A DNA stretch of 64,000 nt, from positions 871-64,870 of the forward strand of contig CALENB010000329.1 in assembly GCA_937910235.1 (NCBI GenBank). The letters are read 5' to 3'. The notes under the pieces are model-generated. The model was given only the letters and a program-made list of their open reading frames with translations, searched no databases and had not been told where the DNA came from. A program made the translations under genes and the position numbers. This DNA comes from an uncultured Myxococcales bacterium. GTDB lineage: Bacteria > Myxococcota_A > UBA9042. The first letter of the stretch is position 1; every line of letters begins with the position of its first letter. Of this stretch, positions 49,581-59,196 are shown in pieces.

Positions 49581-52500
49581 CTACCGCCGCAGCGCCACGG
49601 CTGTCGGCGACTGCAACGCGCCGTCGATCAACGCCTGCACCGGCCCCTCATAGACGATAGTACCGCCCTTATCGCCGCCACCGGGCCCCAGATCGACCAG
49701 CCAATCCGCCTCCCGCAGCACGTCGAGGTTGTGTTCGATCACCACCACGGTATCGCCGCGATCCACCAGCTCGTGCAGCACGTCTAGCAGCTTGCGTTGG
49801 TCCGCCAAGTGCAGGCCCGTCGAGGGTTCATCCAGCACATACAGCGTCTCGTGGCGGCGCTGCTTGGCGAGCTCGGCGCAGACCTTGATGCGCTGGGCCT
49901 CCCCGCCCGACAGGGTGTTGCTGCCTTGACCGATGCGCAGATAACCGAGGCCGACCTTCTCCGCCAACGCCAGCGGCCGGTGCACCGTGCGCAAGCGCTG
50001 GAAGTGCGCCGCCGCCTCCGAGATGCTCATGGCGAGCACGTCCGCGATGGTGGCGCCACGCAGCTGCACCCGCAGGGTTTGGCGGCTGTAGCGCGCGCCG
50101 CCGCACGTCTCACAAGGCACATACACCGTCGGTAGGAAGCTCATGTCGACCTTGATGACGCCCGCGCCCTGACACGTCTCGCAGCGGCCTCCTTTCACGT
50201 TGAACGAGAAATGCTTGGCTTTGAGGCCGAGGATCTTGGCTTCTGGCTGCGCGGCGAACTGTTTGCGGATGCCGTCCCACACCCCCAGATAGGTCGCCGG
50301 GCAGGATCGCGGCGTGCGGCCGATGGGGCTCTGATCGACCTCGACGACGCGGCCGAGGCCCTGCAAGCCCGTGATGTCCGCGATCTCGTCGTCCACGGTG
50401 ATGGCCGCCGCGTCGCCGTGCACCAGCGGGCCGCCGACGCCGACCAGCAGGTCGCGGACCAGGGTCGATTTGCCTGAGCCGCTCACCCCCGAGATGCCGT
50501 TGAGCCGGCCACGCGCGATGGTCGCGTCGACCCGACGCAGGTTGTTGCGTCGCGCGCCGCGCAAGCTGATCCGCGGAGAATCCGGCGTCACAGCGCGGGC
50601 CTCATGCCGCGAGCGCCGCAACGTCGGGTCGGCCAACATCCGACCGGTCGGCGAGTCGGGATCGGCGAGCAGGTCGGCCAAGGAGCCGGCGTGTAGCACC
50701 GCGCCGCCGAGCTCACCGCCACCGGGGCCGAGCTCCACGACGTGATCGGCGCGCCGGATCGTCTCTTCGTCGTGCTCGACGACGATGAGGCCGTTGCCCC
50801 GCGCGATGAGGTGATCAAAGGCCGCCAGCAGCCGCTGGTTGTCGGCGGGATGGAGCCCGATGGTCGGCTCGTCGAGCACGTATAAGACGCCACGCAGATT
50901 GGAGCTGAGCTGGCTGGCGAGCCGAATGCGCTGGCTCTCCCCGCCCGACAGGGTCACCGCGCTGCGGTCGAGGCTCAGGTAGTCGAGGCCGACGTCGAGC
51001 AGGAACGCGCACCGCGCCGCCACCTCTCGCACGATGGGATCGGCGACAGCGGCGTCGCGGCTGCTCCACACCACCGCAGACAGAAACACCGTCAGCTGTT
51101 GCGGGTTCATCGCGCTCAGCTCGTGGATGCCTTTGCCGGCGACGGAGACCTCAAGCGCCTCGGACCGCAGCCGCGCGCCGTCACAGCTCGGGCACCACGC
51201 CAACCGCCGCCGCTCCTCCTGCTCGCCCTCGCGCAGCTCGCCCTCCTCCAACTCTTGCAGCGCGGCGGGTGTCTCGGCCTCCACCTTCGCCGCGCGCGCC
51301 GACTTGGGCCGACCCGCGATCGGCGTTGGTGTCTCGTCGGGCGCCATGCCCGAGCCCCGACAGTCTGGGCACCAGCCGCGCGTCGACGTGAAGCTAAACA
51401 GCAGCGGATCGAGGCCCGTCGCTCTGCGGCCCGTGGCGCTGCCGGCGGGATCGACCTCAAAACTGTGCACGCCGCTCGCCGCCGTGCGCACCCGCACCTG
51501 GCCGTCGCCTGCGTTCATGGCCGCGGTGATGGCCGCCTCCAGCACCTCGGGGCGCCACTGGCCGGGGCGCCCCTGGACCATGTGCGTCATGGCTGGCTCA
51601 GGAGCGAGCACCACCAGCACATCGTCGATGTCGTGGGCGACGTAGCGGCGCAGCGGCGGCACGGCGGCGATGGGACACAGCGCGTCATCGATATGAATCC
51701 AGGTGCGCCCGGCGCGCTCGGCGCGCTCGATGACGTCGCGATGAAAGCCCTTGCGGCCCCGCACCAGCGGCACCATGACGTAGAGCGGCGCGGTCGCCGG
51801 CAGCGCGGCGACCTGCAGCGCCACCTCCGCCGGTGTACGCACGGCCAGCGCGCCTTCGTGGGCGGCGGAGACCCGACCGCAGCGGGCGAACAGCAACCGC
51901 AGGTAGCTTTGGATGTCCGTCAGGGTGCCGACGGTGGAGCGGCTGCCGCCGCGCGTGGTGCGCTGGGCGATGGCGATGGTCGGCGGCAGCCCGCGCAGGC
52001 TGTCGACATCGGGGCGGCTCACAGGCGGCAGATATTGGCGGGCGTAGGGCGACAAGCAGTCGAGGAAACGGCGCTGGCCTTCGGCGAAGACCACGTCAAA
52101 GGCGAGCGACGACTTGCCGGAGCCCGACAGCCCGGTGATCACCGTCAGCCCATCGCGCGGCAGATCGACGCTGATGTTGCGGAGGTTGTGCACCCTGGCG
52201 CCGCGCACCTCGACGTGGCCCGGGTCGTCCAAGGCCTCGGCGATGGCGAGGTTCGGCCGGGCTGCGATCGTCGCCGCTGGCGCTGTAGCCCCGTCCAGAT
52301 GGGCCCGCAGCCACTGGCCGGTCGCCGTGGCGCCCAGCTCAGCGAGCCGTGCGGGCGGGCCCTGAAAGAGCAGCGATCCCCCGCCGGGGCCGCCTTCAGG
52401 TCCGAGCTCGACGACATGATCAGCGGCGGCGATCACGTCGAGGTGATGCTCAACCACCACCACGGTGTTGCCCGCCGCCACGAGCTTGCGCAGGCTGTTC

Positions 52501-55238
52501 AACAAGACCCGCACATCGTCGAGATGCAACCCCGTGGACGGCTCATCGAGCAGGAACAAGGCCTGCTGCGTACGCTGGCAGAGCAGATGCCATGCGACTT
52601 TGAGGCGCTGGGACTCGCCGCCAGACAGCGTGCTGAGGGGCTGGCCAAGCCGCAGGTAGCCGAGCCCCAGCTCGCACATCGCCAGGGCCGGGCGGGCGAG
52701 CTTGCGGTCGTCGGCGAAACGCTCGGCGATCTCGTGAGCTGTGGCGCTGAGGAAATCCGCGGCCGACATGCCGCGCACCTTCACATCGAGCACCTCGGGG
52801 CCAAAGCGGCGGCCTTCGCAGGCTTCGCACGTGACCCGCACGTCCGAGAGGAACTGCATGTCGACGACCTCGAGCCCGGCGCCGTTGCAGACCGTGCAGC
52901 GACCGCCGGGCCGATTGAACGAGAACATCGACGTGGTGTAGTCGCGTTCTTGCGCCAGCTCGGTCGCCGCCAAGCGCTGGCGCACGGCGTCCCAGAGCTT
53001 GAGGTAGGTCGCTGGGTTGGCGCGGCTGTTGCCGACCACGGCGGCTTGCTCGACGAGCACCACGTCATCGAGCCCGTCCGTGCCTTCGAGGCCACCAAAC
53101 GCTCCCGGTGTCTCCGTGGGGCGGCCGAGTTGGCGCAGCATGGCGCGGTGCAGGACCTCCTCGACCAGCGTCGATTTGCCGGAGCCGCTGACGCCGCAGA
53201 CCACGTTGAGCCGGCCGCGCTTGAAGCGCACACGGCCGCCCTTGAGGTTGCGCGCCTGGGGTTCGATCACCGCCAGCCAGGGGCTCCCGGCGCCGAGCGT
53301 CGTCCGCTCGCGGTCGAGCAGGCGGGCCCGCTTGGCGATGGTGCGTGACATGTCGCGATCGGTCGCCGCCCGCTCGCGCAGCGCCTCGCCGTGCGCGAGC
53401 GGCGCCGGCGCAGTCTCGCGGACGTGGCGCCGGCCGAGGAGGTAGTCGGCCGTCAGGCTACCTGAGACGCCGGCGAGGTCCGCTGGCGGCCCGGAGAACA
53501 GCAGCTCGCCGCCGTGTTCACCCGCGCCCGGGCCAAGGTCGATGAGGTGATCGGCCGCGGCGATGAGCGCCGGATCGTGCTCGACCATGACCACGGTGTT
53601 CCCCGCCGCTTTGAGGCGACCGAGGATGCCAAGCAGCCGCTCGTTGTCGCGCGGATGCAGCCCGACGCTGGGTTCATCGAGCACGTACAGCACCGAGCTC
53701 AGCCCGCTCGAGAGGGCCGTCACAAGCTGCACACGCTGTAGCTCACCGCCGGACAGGGTGCGACCCGGGCGTCCGAGCGTCAGGTAACCGAGGCCCAGCT
53801 CGCCAAGCAGCGCCACGCGGCGTGCCAACTCCGCGAGCGGACGCGCCGCCGCGCCACCGTCTGCCAGCCCAGCGATCCAGCCTTGCAGCACCTCGATGGG
53901 GGTCTGCAGCCACACGGGCAGCGCCGCGCCGGCGACCTGCCAACCGAGCGCCTCGGGCTGCAAGCGCGCGCCATCGCAGGCGGGACACGTCACATACTTG
54001 CGATACCGGCTCAGCAGCACCCGCACGTGCATCCGGTAGGTGCGGGTCTCCAGCCACGCGAACCACTCCCGCAGCCCCCAAAATCGGGGCGCGCCGGGGA
54101 AGGCCGTGACGCGTTCGGGATCGTAGCCGTCCATCAGCCAGCCGCGCGTGGCTTCGCTTAGGTCGGCCCACGGCACCTGCTGATCGATCTCGGCGGCCTG
54201 GCAAAACGCGTCGAGCTGCTCTCGCTCCCAGGTGGTGCGCTCCGTCGTCCAGGGCTTGATGGCGCCGTCGGCCAAGCTCAGGCCCTCGTCGGGCAGACAT
54301 CGGGCTTCGTCGAGCGCCATGATGCGACCAAAGCCGTTGCACGTCTCGCAGGCGCCGACCGGCGAGTTCCAGGAGAACAGGTTGGGCGATGGATCGGGGG
54401 TCTCGTGGTCACACGTCTCACAGCGCAGCGCCGATGACGCGCGGTGTCGAATGAGCGGCGCCGCCTTCTTGGCGCCGCGCGTTGGGGCGTCGGTCTCCGT
54501 CACCGCGTGGAGCCCCGTAGTCGCTGCGAGCGCGTCGCCCTCAAGCCACAGGTGCACCTCGCCGTCGCCGCGCCGCAGCGCTTCGTGCACCGATTCGAAC
54601 AGCCGGTCGGCTTCGGTCGCGTCGATCTTCAGTCGGTCGACCAGCACGTCGACCGGCTCTCCGGGGGTGAACGTCTCCAGCGGCGCGACTCTCTGATCTT
54701 TCCATTGACGATGCAGCCCGGCCCGCGCCAGCTCCCGCAGCGCCAGCTCGCCACCGCTTCGGAGCTGCAGCGGAAAGGTGATCACCGCGCGCCGACCCGA
54801 CGCGTGGTTGAGGAGGGCTTCCACCACCTGCACCGTCTGTAGTCGCGCCATGGGGCCGTGGCCATTGGGGCACGTCGGCAGCGCGGCGCTGGCGAAGACG
54901 ACCTTGAGGTACTCCGAGATCTCCGTCAGCGTCGCCACGGTGCTACGCGCCGCGCGCAGCCGTTTGCCCTGCTCCAGCGCGACGGTGGGCAGGATCCCGG
55001 TGATCTCGTCTGCCTCAGGGCGGTCCATCCGCTCGAGAAACTGGCGCGCGTAGCTGCTCAGACACTCGACGTAGCGGCGCTGTCCCTCCGCGTAGAGCGT
55101 GTCGAACGCGAGCGAGCTCTTGCCGGAGCCGCTGACCCCGGTGATGACGGTGATCTGGCGGAGCGGGATGTCGAGGTCAAACCCGCGCAGGTTGTTCTGG
55201 CGTATCCCACGCAGGCGGATGACATCGGGCTCATTCAT
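49581..55238 (-). CDS. uvrA: Excinuclease ABC subunit A, double-length (two fused UvrA units)
   Basis: Four Walker A motifs G(V/L)SGSGKS, two AEGQRR motifs, four LSGGE signatures, four LDEP Walker B motifs and CxxC zinc motifs; ATG 55238. Confidence 0.95.
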
Positions 55239-55391
55239 GGGCGGGCTCCGCGGCAGGGTCGAGCGGGACCTGTCGAGCCCGCGGCGCAGTGTGCGGCGGC
55301 GGCAAAAAAAACCCAACATACGGCAAAAAATCGGTCGCAAAAGCGCGCGTTTCGCCGTCAGAATGGCTCTCTCCAGCCATACGCTGTTGAC

Positions 55392-55471
55392 AATAAAGCG
55401 TAAAACAAAAGTGACAGGTATGTGACAGAAACGTGTTGACGGGGTGTCACAAAGCTGTATAGTCGCCCTCG
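55392..55471 (+). promoter_or_regulatory. Sigma70 stable-RNA-type promoter
   Basis: TTGACG (55436-55441), 16-nt spacer, TATAGT (55458-55463), GC-rich discriminator CGCCCTC; A-tracts upstream (55392-55410) in otherwise GC-rich DNA. Confidence 0.8.
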
Positions 55472-55571
55472 TTGAACGGCACTAAGGAGCTGATCGCACT
55501 GAGGGTCCACAAGACGGCATTCCTTCGCGGAGCGCAAGTCGGGGACACAAACCTCAAGGGGGGAGGCAGCG

Positions 55572-55607
55572 CTCGAAAGAGGCAAGCCAACCCGCGGTTC
55601 TTTGACA
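55572..55607 (+). promoter_or_regulatory. boxB-like hairpin and boxA-like (NusB/NusE antitermination) element
   Basis: ctcGAAAgag (55572-55581), then GGTTCTTTGACA (55596-55607) versus the rrn boxA consensus TGCTCTTTAACA. Confidence 0.7.
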
Positions 55608-55608
55608 C

Positions 55609-57156
55609 TCTGCAGAGCAGGTACCAGACCGATACGCTAGTTGAGCGTGCTGTCTCCAGGGAGACGACTCTTCGGAGTCGACTTCAAGAAGTGGCATGAA
55701 GCAGCGAGCCGGACGGGCCAAGAGAGCGAGGTATCCGAAAGGGTGCTCCGAAGGAAGGTTCAGAAAGCGCGAATCGAGGGAAGTACCGAAACCCATGAGA
55801 GGAGGGGGCGGCGCGAGAGAGCGCGAGGCCGAGAGGAGGGAGTCATCGTCAAGCAATTGGCGGCGGGTCACAAATCGAAGCGCGTGTGAAGACGTGACGT
55901 CGCCGAGAAGAGCGGGGAGAAATCCTCGGAGAGGCGAAAGCCCAAGAGAGGAACGGGTGTTGGGAACCGGGTAATACCGGTCCGGCGCAACGGACCTTGC
56001 TGATGCATGAATCCTCAGGGCCCCAATTTGTCGACACGTATGGCGGTCGGCGGCAAAGACTGCGGCGACGCAGTTCGAGACGTCGGAGAGTTGTGCGGGG
56101 CGGCACGATTAAGGGCGAAGAGGGCAGGATGCGCCGTGAGGCGTGGAAGGCTACAGCGAGGGGGAAACCTCTGAAGGGAGAAACCCCATGGACGCTTTCG
56201 GCATGAAATAGGGCTGAAAGGTGAAGAGCGGAATAAAGCGTCAAGAGGTTGAGAAAACCTGAAGGCGCAGCGGAGCTGGGCGAGGTAAACCCAGTGTAAG
56301 TCGCTGCTTTTCACTGATGGCGTCGAAGGGGCACCAAAGCCTAAGAGTGTGTGGTTACGGATCGACTGGGAGGAAGTCTGAGCGGCGTTGAAAGCGGGGT
56401 TAAAGCCGCGGAAGAGGCCGGTTGGGTGGAGTCGCTAGGTCTGAAAAGGTAGTGAGCGCGAGGAAAGCGAAGGGGGAAGCAGGGGAGCGGCCGAGAGGTT
56501 GTGAAGCTACGGAAACCAAGCAGAACACGCGTGGGACAGGGCGAACCGCTTGCGGGGAGTCGTGAACGCAGTCGCTGCGCGGACAGGTCGAAGTGGAAGC
56601 TTGGGGCGAGAGTCACAGGTGAAAGCGTCGAGGTGGAGAGTTGGACGTGTAAGCGGACGGCAGGAAGCTCCAGGGCGGAGAAGTGGAAGAGGTGGCGTTG
56701 AGGGTCAGCACCGCGAGGTGGGGGCAGGAGATGGCGCTGATGAAGCGGACTACAGGGGATGACGTAGCGGAATCGTCGAGGATAGACGCTGAACGCAAGC
56801 TGAAGGAACAAGAGTGGATGCCGAGGCTGAGTTGATTAGTCTCGGCAAGCCGGAGGGTGAGTACCGCGAAGGTCGGGAATGTGAAGGTTGTGCCCGCAAG
56901 GGTTGAGCTGGAGCGTGACTAAGGCCATGGCGGGTATACGAAACCAATGACGTACCAGGTCTCCGGTCTGAAGACGCTGAAGTTTATGGTAATGCGAGGA
57001 GTGGATACGCCGCAGGTGGTGACACAGGCGCGCGCAACTCGATGACGAAGAGTTCATGAAGGGCCAGTTGGCGCTAAGGGGAGACCCGAGGTGCAGGCTG
57101 CCCGAGTGAAGACACACGCTGAAAGGCGCAACTCATGGGCGGTCAGTTCTGCCAGA
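55609..57156 (+). ncRNA. Putative ~1.55 kb structured non-coding RNA of unknown class
   Basis: Own promoter and terminator. 5' TCTGCAGAGC pairs with 3' GTTCTGCCAGA. Many GNRA/UUCG hairpins, strong purine skew, no credible ORF, and no 16S/23S/5S/tRNA signatures. Confidence 0.8.
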
Positions 57157-57166
57157 CAACCGGAGA

Positions 57167-57204
57167 GACCCGGATCGCGCAAGCGGTCCGGGTTTTTTCG
57201 TTTT
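57167..57204 (+). terminator. Rho-independent terminator
   Basis: GACCCGGATCGC-GCAA-GCGGTCCGGGTT followed by TTTTCGTTTT. Confidence 0.9.
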
Positions 57205-57250
57205 GCGGCCGCTGGGTCTCGGTTGCGTCGTCGGCTGCGCCCAGCGTCCA

Positions 57251-57289
57251 GCGCGCCTTGTGCGCGGCGCGCCTTGTGCGCGGCGCGCC
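57251..57289. repeat. 16-bp tandem repeat GCGCGCCTTGTGCGCG x2.4
   Basis: Read directly: 57251-57266, 57267-57282, partial copy to 57289. Confidence 0.8.
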
Positions 57290-57345
57290 AGCCGCTCGGC
57301 TACGTTCTATTTCCGTAGTGCTGGGGGGAGTGCTAGAACCCAGCC

Positions 57346-59196
57346 ATGAGGAGCCCTCGGTCCACAACTCGCTGCGTCGCCTTCCCCGTGACTCGACTAC
57401 CCCTTGGTCTGGTGCTGGTCGTGATCTTGGGCCTGACCGCGTGCGCCCAGCGCCGGGACGTTGCGACAGCGCGGCCGGTCGTTGCGACGCCGGCTGACGC
57501 TGGTCCGGCGGGCGTCGTCGCACCCTCAGCCGTGCCCATCGCCGCTCGCCGGTCCGTCCGGGTGCTCGCTGCGACGCCGATTTTTCAGCTCGATCGCGTG
57601 GTCGACGTGAAGCTGGAGCTCGACGCGCAGGCGCTCGCCTCCCTGCGTAACCAGCCGCGAGTGTATACCCGCGCGACGGTCACGGTGGATGGCGAGCGCA
57701 TGATCGAGGTCGGCGTGCGGCTCAAGGGGCACCGCTCGTTTCGGGACCTGGGTGACCGACCGTCGTACCTGCTCGATTTTAAGCGCTTCTCACCCAAGCG
57801 GCGTCTGCACGGCCTGCGCAAGCTGGTGCTCAACAGCATGGTTGAAGATCCCACCCTGGTCCGCGAGGTGTTGGGCTACGAGCTCTTCCGCAAGGCAGGG
57901 GTGACCGCGCCGCGGACGGGGTACGTGCGCGTCACCGTCAACGGCAAACATCCGCAGCTCTACTTGGCGGTGGAGCCCATCGACAAGACGTTTCTGACGC
58001 ACCGCTACGCTAACCCGAAAGGCAACCTCTACGAAGGTGAGTACGGCTGCGACGTGAACCGGGAGGACGTGTGGGGTTTTGACCTGGACGCGGGCCGCGA
58101 CACCAGCCGCGCCGATTTCAAGGCCCTCGCGGCGCTGATGCCGCGCGGCGTGACGGTCGTGTTTGGCGATGGTCCCGGCGGCGTGGACCGCGAGCAGGTG
58201 TTGGCGTTCTTGGCGATGAGCGTCGTGGTCGGTGATTTTGACGGCTATGAGCACCACCACAACTACTTCCTGTATCACGAGCCGTCGCGCGATCGCTGGT
58301 CGATGATGCCGTGGGGGATCGACCGCGCGTTCTTTGATGACGTGAAGCCCTACGCCTGCGAGGGGCTGATCGCGCGGATGTGTTTTGCGGACCGCGCGTG
58401 CCGGGTCGCCTACGTCGCTCAGCTTCGCAGCGCTGTGGGGCTGCTGGAGGCGGCGAATCTGCCGGAGCGTGTGAGCGCGATCGACGCCTTGATCGGCAGC
58501 GTCGTCGCGGCGGACACCCATCCGCCCCGCGCCGCCAAGAAGCGGCGGAAAAAGCGGGCTGAGCTGCTGCGATTTGTGCGTGGCCGCGCCAAGCAGCTCG
58601 CCAAGTGGACCGATTGCCTGCGCGGCGGGAAGGAGCGCGATCAGGATGGCGACGGCTACGGTTGCATGGACTGCGACGACCAGAACCCTGCGGTTCATCC
58701 GGGCGCGGCGGAGGTCTGCGACGGCGTCGACAACAACTGCTCAGGGCAGGTCGATGATGCCCCGCAGTGCCCCTGCACGGTGAGTCAGATCGACGGCGTG
58801 CGGTTTGAGTTGTGCGACCTGCCGATGCCCTGGCTTGAGGCGGCGCGCTACTGCAAGGCCAAAGGCATGCACCTCGCGCGGGTCGACTCCAAAGCGCAGA
58901 GCAAGGCGCTGTATCAGGCCGGGCGGCGGGTGCGAAAGACACAGTGGTGGCTTGGGCTCAACGACCGGCAGGCGGAGGACCAGCATGTGTGGGACGACGG
59001 CACGAAGGTTGGCTTCACCCACTGGAAGAGCGGCGAGCCCAGTGACATGGCGTGCGGCGAGGACTGCGTCGCGCTCGCCAAACGGGCCAAGGGCAAGTGG
59101 TATGACAGCCATTGTGGGCTGCATCGGGCCTTCATCTGTCGGGCGCCAGACGCGGCCGCGGCGACGCCGGCGCAGCTCGTGGCCCCAGGCAAGTAG
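57346..59196 (+). CDS. Lipoprotein: CotH-family kinase, MopE-like repeat and C-type lectin domain
   Basis: LTAC lipobox; VGVRLKG..SF, LVLNSMVEDP..VRE, NYFLY...WSMMPWGID (CotH); DCDD..PAVHPGAAEVCDGVDNNC; WLGLND, WKSGEP, EDC, WYDSHC (CTL). Confidence 0.88.
   Translation: MRSPRSTTRCVAFPVTRLPLGLVLVVILGLTACAQRRDVATARPVVATPADAGPAGVVAPSAVPIAARRSVRVLAATPIFQLDRVVDVKLELDAQALASLRNQPRVYTRATVTVDGERMIEVGVRLKGHRSFRDLGDRPSYLLDFKRFSPKRRLHGLRKLVLNSMVEDPTLVREVLGYELFRKAGVTAPRTGYVRVTVNGKHPQLYLAVEPIDKTFLTHRYANPKGNLYEGEYGCDVNREDVWGFDLDAGRDTSRADFKALAALMPRGVTVVFGDGPGGVDREQVLAFLAMSVVVGDFDGYEHHHNYFLYHEPSRDRWSMMPWGIDRAFFDDVKPYACEGLIARMCFADRACRVAYVAQLRSAVGLLEAANLPERVSAIDALIGSVVAADTHPPRAAKKRRKKRAELLRFVRGRAKQLAKWTDCLRGGKERDQDGDGYGCMDCDDQNPAVHPGAAEVCDGVDNNCSGQVDDAPQCPCTVSQIDGVRFELCDLPMPWLEAARYCKAKGMHLARVDSKAQSKALYQAGRRVRKTQWWLGLNDRQAEDQHVWDDGTKVGFTHWKSGEPSDMACGEDCVALAKRAKGKWYDSHCGLHRAFICRAPDAAAATPAQLVAPGK

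Follow-up and report, generated by a model that had tools for sequence, protein, structure and literature searches.

The 36-nt element at 55572-55607 is best explained as a hairpin and boxA belonging to the 5' leader domain of a non-coding RNA (ncRNA) that is large and structured. It lies in a window, the whole stretch of DNA that was analysed, of 64,000 nt from an uncultured Myxococcales bacterium, and consists, in order, of CTC-GAAA-GAG, GCAAGCCAACCCGC and GGTTCTTTGACA, the hairpin ending 14 nt 5' of boxA. The original prediction had set a hairpin and a boxA about 125 nt past the predicted transcription start, and both lie where it placed them: boxA is found at about +127 from the inferred start, on the sense strand, in the promoter-proximal leader of a ~1.7-kb transcript that ends in a terminator. 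Judged from sequence and conservation, the motif is rather likely to be a real NusB/S10 loading site that would serve processive synthesis and long-range folding of this RNA. In what follows, G000 is the label of the window's own genome, and other G, L and f labels denote relatives, leader copies and families. The features of the gene, in coordinates of the window, are these:

55436-55463 (+): promoter TTGACG-16 nt-TATAGT, 10 of 12 positions matching, with the inferred start at ~55470
55469-55498 (+): 5' strand of H1, the terminal leader-trailer helix: CTCGTTG-AAC-GGCA followed by a CTAA bulge and GGAGCTGATCGC, by duplex prediction
55470-57200 (+): whole primary transcript as inferred from ORFs, composition and fold, a purine-rich, ORF-poor structured ncRNA
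55481-57063 (+): candidate stable RNA, covered by RNA-library contigs of three studies with 0-1 differences, boxA included
55541-55620 (+): conserved leader module (small stems, GNRA hairpin, boxA, start of the post-boxA strand), by covariance model R1
55565-55567 and 55586-55588 (+): GGC and GCC which, with a GGG/CCC, enclose the hairpin at 55572-55581 in the consensus fold
55572-55581 (+): boxB-like hairpin CTC-GAAA-GAG (CTC 55572-55574, GAAA 55575-55578, GAG 55579-55581)
55596-55607 (+): boxA-like motif GGTTCTTTGACA, candidate NusB/S10 site, by sequence, conservation and consensus match
55608-55621 (+): post-boxA strand CTCTGCAGAGCAGG, trailer-complementary, possible boxC analogue, by duplex prediction and alignment A4
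56228-56271 (+): core block with the highest conservation in the RNA body, by BLAST (query 742-968) and relatives' RNA contigs
57139-57165 (+): 3' (trailer) strand of H1, GCGGTCAGTTCT then GCCAGACAACCGGAG, by duplex prediction
57167-57198 (+): intrinsic terminator, a G+C-rich hairpin with a GCAA loop followed by TTTTTT, read from the sequence

The RNA gene, its transcript and its neighbours

The promoter at 55436-55463 was the only promoter-like site within 55200-57400, where shuffled sequences held a mean of 0.3 sites, and TTGAC-type promoters were seen by eye at the equivalent position in homologues. The homologues measure 1.0-1.7 kb, each with a terminator at its end. The terminator hairpin at 57167-57198 has a predicted energy of -23 to -32 kcal/mol and is present in the relative G001 as well; the consensus terminator scan did not list it, its stem and loop lying outside the limits of that scan. 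Between the -10 element and the start, the stretch 55464-55472 is G+C-rich (TCGCCCTCG) and identical in G001. G+C-rich discriminators typify stringently controlled promoters, and this stretch resembles them. Inside the RNA, a terminator-like hairpin followed by CTTTTC was noted at 56292-56306, and G042 has a comparable hairpin with TTTT in the corresponding position; speculatively, polymerase could pause or terminate here, and read-through would then be needed.

The transcript had been predicted to be untranslated, and the coding analysis agreed. There was no long ORF in 55470-57200, and among 18 homologues the longest plus-strand ORFs differed in place and length, leaving no conserved ORF. 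Mismatches between G000 and G001 were spread evenly over the three phases (172/173/176), and 13 of the 19 indels were of 1-2 nt. The same region has 58-61% G+C, compared with ~70% in its flanks, and a GC skew of up to +0.40. Rfam 15 gave no match at gathering score in the window; with E up to 10, the single match in 55350-57260 was to the terminator hairpin, on the minus strand, with neither SSU nor LSU rRNA among the results, and the window contains no tRNA. As for structure, RNAalifold on 10 full-length family-f7 RNAs (alignment A4) predicted 246 pairs, with compensatory changes in 121, against 69-74 pairs and 15-20 compensatory ones in three column shuffles of the same alignment, and several long-range helices delimit domains. 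For 7 RNAs of family f1, alignment was poor at the ends and the consensus fold uninformative.

Evidence for expression came from public sequencing runs (22 listed, 19 containing the stretch; 9 on record as RNA; 7 studies). Small metatranscriptomes contained 0.44-0.86 of the sampled words of the stretch, and the DNA run of the same sample as one RNA run contained next to none. Among RNA-library contigs compared with 55200-57500, those of X4 covered 55485-56399 and 56372-57063, those of X8 covered 55481-56257 and 56242-56844, and that of X17 covered 56351-57063, with zero cover on 55200-55480 and 57064-57500. RNA contigs of relatives matched only the two best-conserved blocks, 55583-55624, which is the boxA stretch, and 56228-56271, and their depth was 118-2,229, contig depth being a poor measure of expression. 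The leader, boxA included, appears to belong to the stable RNA. Contig ends are a weak hint of RNA ends; with that reading, the stop at 57063 common to two studies lies 10 nt past a long-range inverted repeat (55667-55684 / 57036-57053), and the starts at 55481 and 55485 fall within the 5' strand of H1, which together hint at removal of the trailer. The contigs suggest a stable form of ~55481-57063, with ends taken from contigs only. Neither the RNA itself nor any boxA-led large ncRNA was found in a literature search of open-access papers and bioRxiv, and the RNA appears to be both undescribed and expressed.

The gene behaves as a free-standing RNA gene. Pfam searches with 48 flanking frames at 15 loci returned unrelated neighbours (UvrA-like, CotH, LysR, spermine synthase, TolB, histidine kinase, PI-PLC and others), and no gene neighbourhood was conserved beyond the genus level at these loci. 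In the window, the upstream neighbour is a divergent ORF of 1,919 aa (49581-55340, -), whose first ~530 residues match UvrA DNA-binding and interaction domains and whose total length is about twice that of UvrA. Downstream (57346-59196, +) lies a gene for a 616-aa CotH-family protein with a C-terminal part that is, by eye, cysteine- and tryptophan-rich and lectin-domain-like. Just past the terminator, at ~57250-57292, a G+C-rich word of ~19 nt, CGCGCCTTGTGCGCGGCG, was seen by eye in direct tandem repeat.

Conservation of the leader and comparison with rrn leaders

The boxA word GTTCTTTGACA agrees at 10 of 11 positions with GYTCTTTAANA, a consensus derived for gammaproteobacteria according to the available part of PMC5725501, and its sole mismatch is the G at position 8. 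The rrn boxA of B. subtilis, AUGAUCUUUGAAA, also has G at position 8 and binds NusB by NMR, as reported in the accessible portion of PMC13753749. The word GATCTTTGA, contained in the B. subtilis consensus, is present in some homologues. The exact 12-mer GGTTCTTTGACA occurs once when both strands of the 7,097,943-base assembly are counted (~0.21 expected from base composition). The looser pattern G[CT]TCTTTGA[ACG]A occurs 14 times versus ~4.7 expected, so a consensus match by itself is not rare genome-wide and is weak evidence; by eye, the other 13 loose matches lie in G+C-rich, coding-like sequence. The decisive evidence for the element is its conservation, not its match to the consensus.

We therefore turn to the leader copies, for which covariance model R1 was used. 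The leader module of the window matched R1 with 96.1 bits (G000:C329:56411-56490, equal to window 55541-55620), and BLAST against relatives placed it among the best-conserved blocks of the RNA. Fifty leader copies were compared in two covariance-model alignments; some rows are near-identical relatives, and the following counts are not independent and overstate the evidence. The pattern G-N-TCTTT-[GCA]-A stood at the same column in 39 of the 50 leaders, the variant G[TC]TCTCTGA in 4 and neither in 7, so that boxA is conserved among homologues in 43 of 50 leaders, from ~12 families, with the variant included. The first alignment (31 copies, after exclusion of two more weak matches that are leader-like copies inside two f7 RNAs) had G[TAG]TCTTT[GCA]A at the boxA column in 29 rows, the two exceptions both belonging to family f9; the second (19 copies) had 10 canonical motifs, 4 of G[TC]TCTCTGA and 5 of neither. 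That the word arose by chance and has no function would draw on the excess of degenerate matches in the genome, and is exceedingly improbable: it is contradicted by a motif held at one column in 39 (+4 variant) leaders of many families while the flanking columns vary.

The leaders without boxA are L092, L096, L113 and L122 (f9), L120 (f6), L121 (f5) and L126 (f12). All retain the rest of the module, which indicates that boxA is dispensable for the RNA as such. One f9 member carries an inserted hairpin at the boxA position, followed by CGTCTTTGG. Terminator candidates hint that several of the boxA-less RNAs are shorter; a scan of 5'-3' helices and lengths in boxA-less and boxA-bearing leaders was dominated by chance G+C-rich duplexes.

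The hairpin is conserved along with boxA. A CTCG-NNA-GAG hairpin was found in nearly all 50 leaders, with the GNRA loops GAAA, GCAA, GGAA, GGGA, GAGA and GTGA. Its three central pairs are invariant, and none of the 9 pairs of the leader consensus fold shows a compensatory change; the invariance makes these pairs uninformative for or against pairing. Whereas the rrn boxB is conserved in structure and not in sequence, the hairpin here is conserved in sequence and nested in a larger leader stem.

Among the genomes searched, only a single class of uncultured Myxococcota carries the RNA. R1 found the leader in 41 of the 107 genomes of the window's class (28 of 58 genera), at 1-3 copies per genome; in an even sample of the phylum it matched 13 of 151 genomes, all in families of that class, and 0 of the 123 phylum genomes of other families. 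BLAST of the 1,831-nt stretch detected homologues in 16 of 60 relatives and a single copy in G000, with conserved blocks at query positions 153-244 (which holds the element), 520-636, 742-968, 1385-1438 and 1542-1669. A leader-pattern scan of 185,579 species genomes returned 14 places, 2 of them real (Myxococcota MAGs) and 12 by chance in unrelated low-G+C contexts, and it carries little information on spread, as the collection may omit records near the window's genome.

Several copies deserve separate mention. The leader occurs at three places each in G072 and G100 and at two each in G071, G086, G102 and G103, presumably with the whole RNA gene. Weak second matches to the leader model, without boxA, lie at L094:951-1027 (-) and L088:2056-2132 (+), ~550 nt downstream of the true leader in these two f7 RNAs, and may reflect internal duplication of a leader-like module. 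In G075 and G060, also of f7, the variable 5' hairpin (A4 columns 45-70) resembles a further boxA word (GGTTCTTTCAGGAAACTGGA and AGCTCTTTTTAGAACTGGA); in the other f7 members, these columns contain an unrelated G+C-rich hairpin.

For comparison with rrn leaders, 21 16S upstream regions of relatives, one of them unusable, were taken as a stand-in for the genome's own: no 16S or 23S gene is assembled in G000, no 16S gene in its genus, and no rrn-type boxA word was found in the assembly. In 15 of the 21 regions a boxA, G[CG]TCTTTGAAA (GCTCTTTGAAAA), lay 88-150 nt before the 16S gene; GCTCCTTGA was present in four other regions and GCACCTTGACAG in one. The relatives' rrn boxA can be written GCTC[T/C]TTGA[A/G]AA, with the same core as GGTTCTTTGACA. 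The two differ at position 2 (T for C in the RNA gene) and at one N position, both differences being allowed by GYTCTTTAANA, and the G at position 8 of GTTCTTTGACA is common to both. The original prediction had the hairpin and boxA in the order of rrn leaders, and this order was recovered in relatives: a hairpin of -5 kcal/mol or lower within 42 nt preceded the rrn boxA in 16 of 19 of them, with gaps of 0-17 nt and varied sequences. By eye, the relatives' rrn boxA is nearer to the last promoter than ~127 nt. In at least 10 of 13 of their operons, the rrn boxA and the next ~20 nt form the 5' strand of the 16S leader-trailer helix, so this class natively places a boxA next to a long-range closing helix.

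It had further been proposed that the RNA gene may have captured an rrn leader, and here the comparison was negative. In the four genomes with both genes, local alignments of the 5' region with the rrn leader were no better than shuffles (34-104 of 200 shuffles reached the score), and the best alignment lay off boxA in 4 of 4. The idea that a piece of the rrn operon leader was captured by, or duplicated onto, the RNA gene has in its favour the rrn-like order of promoter, hairpin, boxA and trailer-complementary strand, as well as a resemblance, by eye, of the 14 nt after boxA (CTCTGCAGAGCAGG) in genus g1 and family f3 to rrn CTGGATAGCAGG. However, the hairpin and flanks differ, the post-boxA sequence is different in other families (for example ACAGGCACAGTT), and the similarity is confined to the functional motif. 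We regard capture as very unlikely.

Long-range pairing and the place of boxA in the fold

The first ~30-40 nt of the RNA pair with the trailer just 5' of the terminator in all 18 full-length homologues, and these sequences differ greatly between clades. Thirteen of the 18 leader-trailer duplexes beat all 200 shuffles and the others were reached by 4 or fewer, a result inflated somewhat by 5' offsets that were picked from the best duplexes. The weakest case is that of G000, whose H1 duplex scored -29.4 kcal/mol versus -21.2 +/- 3.3 for shuffles (z = -2.5; 4 of 200 shuffles reach it). In f7 (alignment A4), the homologue of H1 comprises 30 pairs with 86.6% of cells paired, compared with 37-53% in slid controls, and it covaries: 9 pairs show changes on both sides in 19 cells, and 0 of 500 shuffles reach this score. 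Long complementary flanks with covariation, the hallmark sought of a pre-rRNA-like leader-trailer helix, are thus present. The broader reading in the original prediction, a boxA-led RNA that borrows from rRNA synthesis, stands as to the untranslated RNA, the rrn-like order, the conserved boxA and the leader-trailer helix, and is unsupported as to capture of an rrn leader.

The strand that follows boxA, CTCTGCAGAGCAGG in the window, can also pair with the trailer. On A4, this alternative helix had 81.8% of cells paired and 4 compensatory pairs (1-2 of 500 shuffles reach this), and in family f1 post-boxA:trailer helices of 10-13 bp were found. The pairing competes with the terminal helix and, in f7, with a covarying local hairpin of the post-boxA strand; it may be a transient, boxC-like pairing.

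The boxA itself is unpaired in the local consensus fold, and in none of 17 RNAs did its best duplexes with the rest of the molecule exceed shuffles. The full-length f7 fold (RNAalifold, 10 RNAs) gives a different picture, in which the UUCU of boxA pairs with a purine run (GGGA/GGAA) ~250 columns downstream, 92.5% paired and with no compensatory change, and UUUCCC next to it pairs with GGGGAA; over both pairings, 86.7-92.5% of cells are paired, and part of the conservation of boxA could accordingly be structural. That downstream block is also the partner of neighbouring leader helices, here with compensatory change (G-C to A-U in 3 of 10), which makes the leader part of the overall fold. In the helix of boxA (helix 4), TCTTT is invariant and all variation falls on the strand predicted to pair with it in the mature fold, which points to a constraint beyond pairing.

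These data bear on the possibility that Nus factors have nothing to do with the boxA-like run, which would instead serve the mature RNA as a structural or protein-binding element and resemble boxA by coincidence. Such an element could pair with a purine strand or bind another protein of a ribonucleoprotein, and pyrimidine runs like this one are very few in the purine-rich RNA; the f7 pairing, the covarying helices beside it and the retention of the leader in RNA-library contigs all fit this account. Against it, the variation in helix 4 is uncompensated and entirely on the partner side, no consistent partner beats shuffles in the 17 RNAs, and the motif agrees both with the boxA consensus at 10 of 11 positions and with the rrn boxA of relatives. 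The 7 of 50 leaders that drop the motif and keep the surrounding module would be odd for a core structural element. Moreover, pairing in the finished RNA is compatible with Nus binding to the nascent one, since in relatives the trailer finally pairs with the rrn boxA, too. We consider this account unlikely, and retain boxA as a candidate Nus site.

Proposed role in synthesis and folding, and comparison with known systems

The boxA, together with its conservation, suggests a large RNA that may be transcribed and folded by the rRNA machinery; Nus binding, antitermination, a chaperone role and processing are predicted from sequence. G000 encodes NusB, Rho and RNase III (rnc). In the mechanism that we propose, the single-stranded GGUUCUUUGA would be bound by NusB-S10 on the emerging leader, and with NusG, NusA and probably SuhB/S4 the polymerase would be converted into an rrn-type processive complex, which would carry transcription through ~1.6 kb of untranslated, hairpin-dense RNA. 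The complex would tether the 5' leader at the RNA exit channel, so that the trailer, emerging ~1.6 kb later, would quickly find its partner and close the terminal helix; trailer and terminator may afterwards be trimmed off. A model of this kind exists for 16S rRNA, in which NusB on boxA retains, at the exit channel, the leader strand downstream of boxA as the rRNA is looped out, and the trailer pairs on emergence (as described in the available part of PMC10250234). A conserved boxA in a leader whose neighbouring strands need a partner ~1.6 kb away fits this tether logic.

Protection from Rho, the other role for which boxA is known, seems less called for. The body of the RNA has much G and little C: of its 128 windows, 2 have C>G, compared with 36 of 137 (26%) and 168 of 438 (38%) in the flanking genes; it therefore looks like a poor Rho substrate, and its need for anti-Rho protection is doubtful. 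We infer that a folding or processivity role is likelier than Rho protection, and such a role has been argued for E. coli rRNA in the accessible text of PMC5725501.

The windows at 55574-55665 are among the very few of the RNA with C>=G, and this patch raises the possibility of a negative control point as in suhB: boxA would overlap the only rut-like patch, and Nus factors or Rho would attenuate synthesis there. The available parts of PMC5725501 and PMC12360218 describe that boxA is able to promote termination by Rho and that in suhB it overlaps with a rut site. However, the suhB mechanism acts via translational repression and there is no ORF here, and the RNA-library contigs run through the site and far past it. 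The high-depth contigs of relatives suggest strong expression, with depth a poor measure of it. Attenuation at boxA is quite improbable, and the reading of boxA as a loading site for processive synthesis is kept.

Should this reading be right, the chaperone role of the transcription complex would extend to another natural, large, folded non-ribosomal RNA, and a second independent system would be at hand for testing boxA tethering in long-range helix closure, for which the RNA offers handles in its promoter, ends, conserved cores and domain helices. More tentatively, and with some reserve, we put forward that the RNA may represent a new class of multi-domain, highly expressed cellular RNA of 1.0-1.7 kb that is built and matured like pre-rRNA, and may be the first non-ribosomal structured cellular RNA whose co-transcriptional folding is chaperoned by the rrn antitermination complex; it would probably be the core of a ribonucleoprotein or ribozyme in one Myxococcota class.

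Nus-factor/boxA complexes are seen as rRNA machinery, with lambda, suhB and CRISPR arrays as extra clients. Large ornate bacterial RNAs such as OLE, GOLLD, ROOL and raiA are not known to have a boxA or a leader-trailer helix, and our literature search found none either. As far as the partial descriptions available go, they share with the present RNA a large, conserved, non-coding structure that stands alone in the genome; the present RNA differs in having no Rfam match, in its phylum and in its length (1.0-1.7 kb versus ~600 nt for OLE).

The lambda nut site, in the part of PMC10250234 available, likewise combines boxA with a small hairpin with a GNRA-type loop on nascent RNA. Its order is boxA then boxB, the reverse of that found here, and the present element has no phage context, no N protein and a stem of 3-4 bp nested in a larger stem. 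A boxA outside rrn operons also recruits Nus factors in the suhB leader and the gammaproteobacterial CRISPR arrays (available parts of PMC5725501 and PMC13753749; the latter names the suhB and CRISPR operons as boxA clients); the CRISPR arrays are also long and untranslated. Unlike the suhB mRNA leader with its repressing boxA and the repeat arrays of CRISPR, however, the Myxococcota RNA is one large folded molecule with a closing helix.

Another close counterpart is the rrn leader, with its boxB, boxA and boxC, its rrnTAC of NusB, S10, NusA, NusG, SuhB and S4, and its 16S helix. The product here is not rRNA; boxA stands ~127 nt from the start within a conserved leader domain that is seemingly retained and paired with the body; the main partner of the trailer is the extreme 5' end and not the boxA strand; sequence homology does not extend beyond the motif; and 7 of 50 members go without boxA. 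What the two have in common is a strong promoter, a hairpin and a boxA of the same core, a long untranslated structured RNA with a covarying leader-trailer helix, a trailer-complementary strand just after boxA and, as the contig ends hint, a trailer that is absent from the stable RNA.
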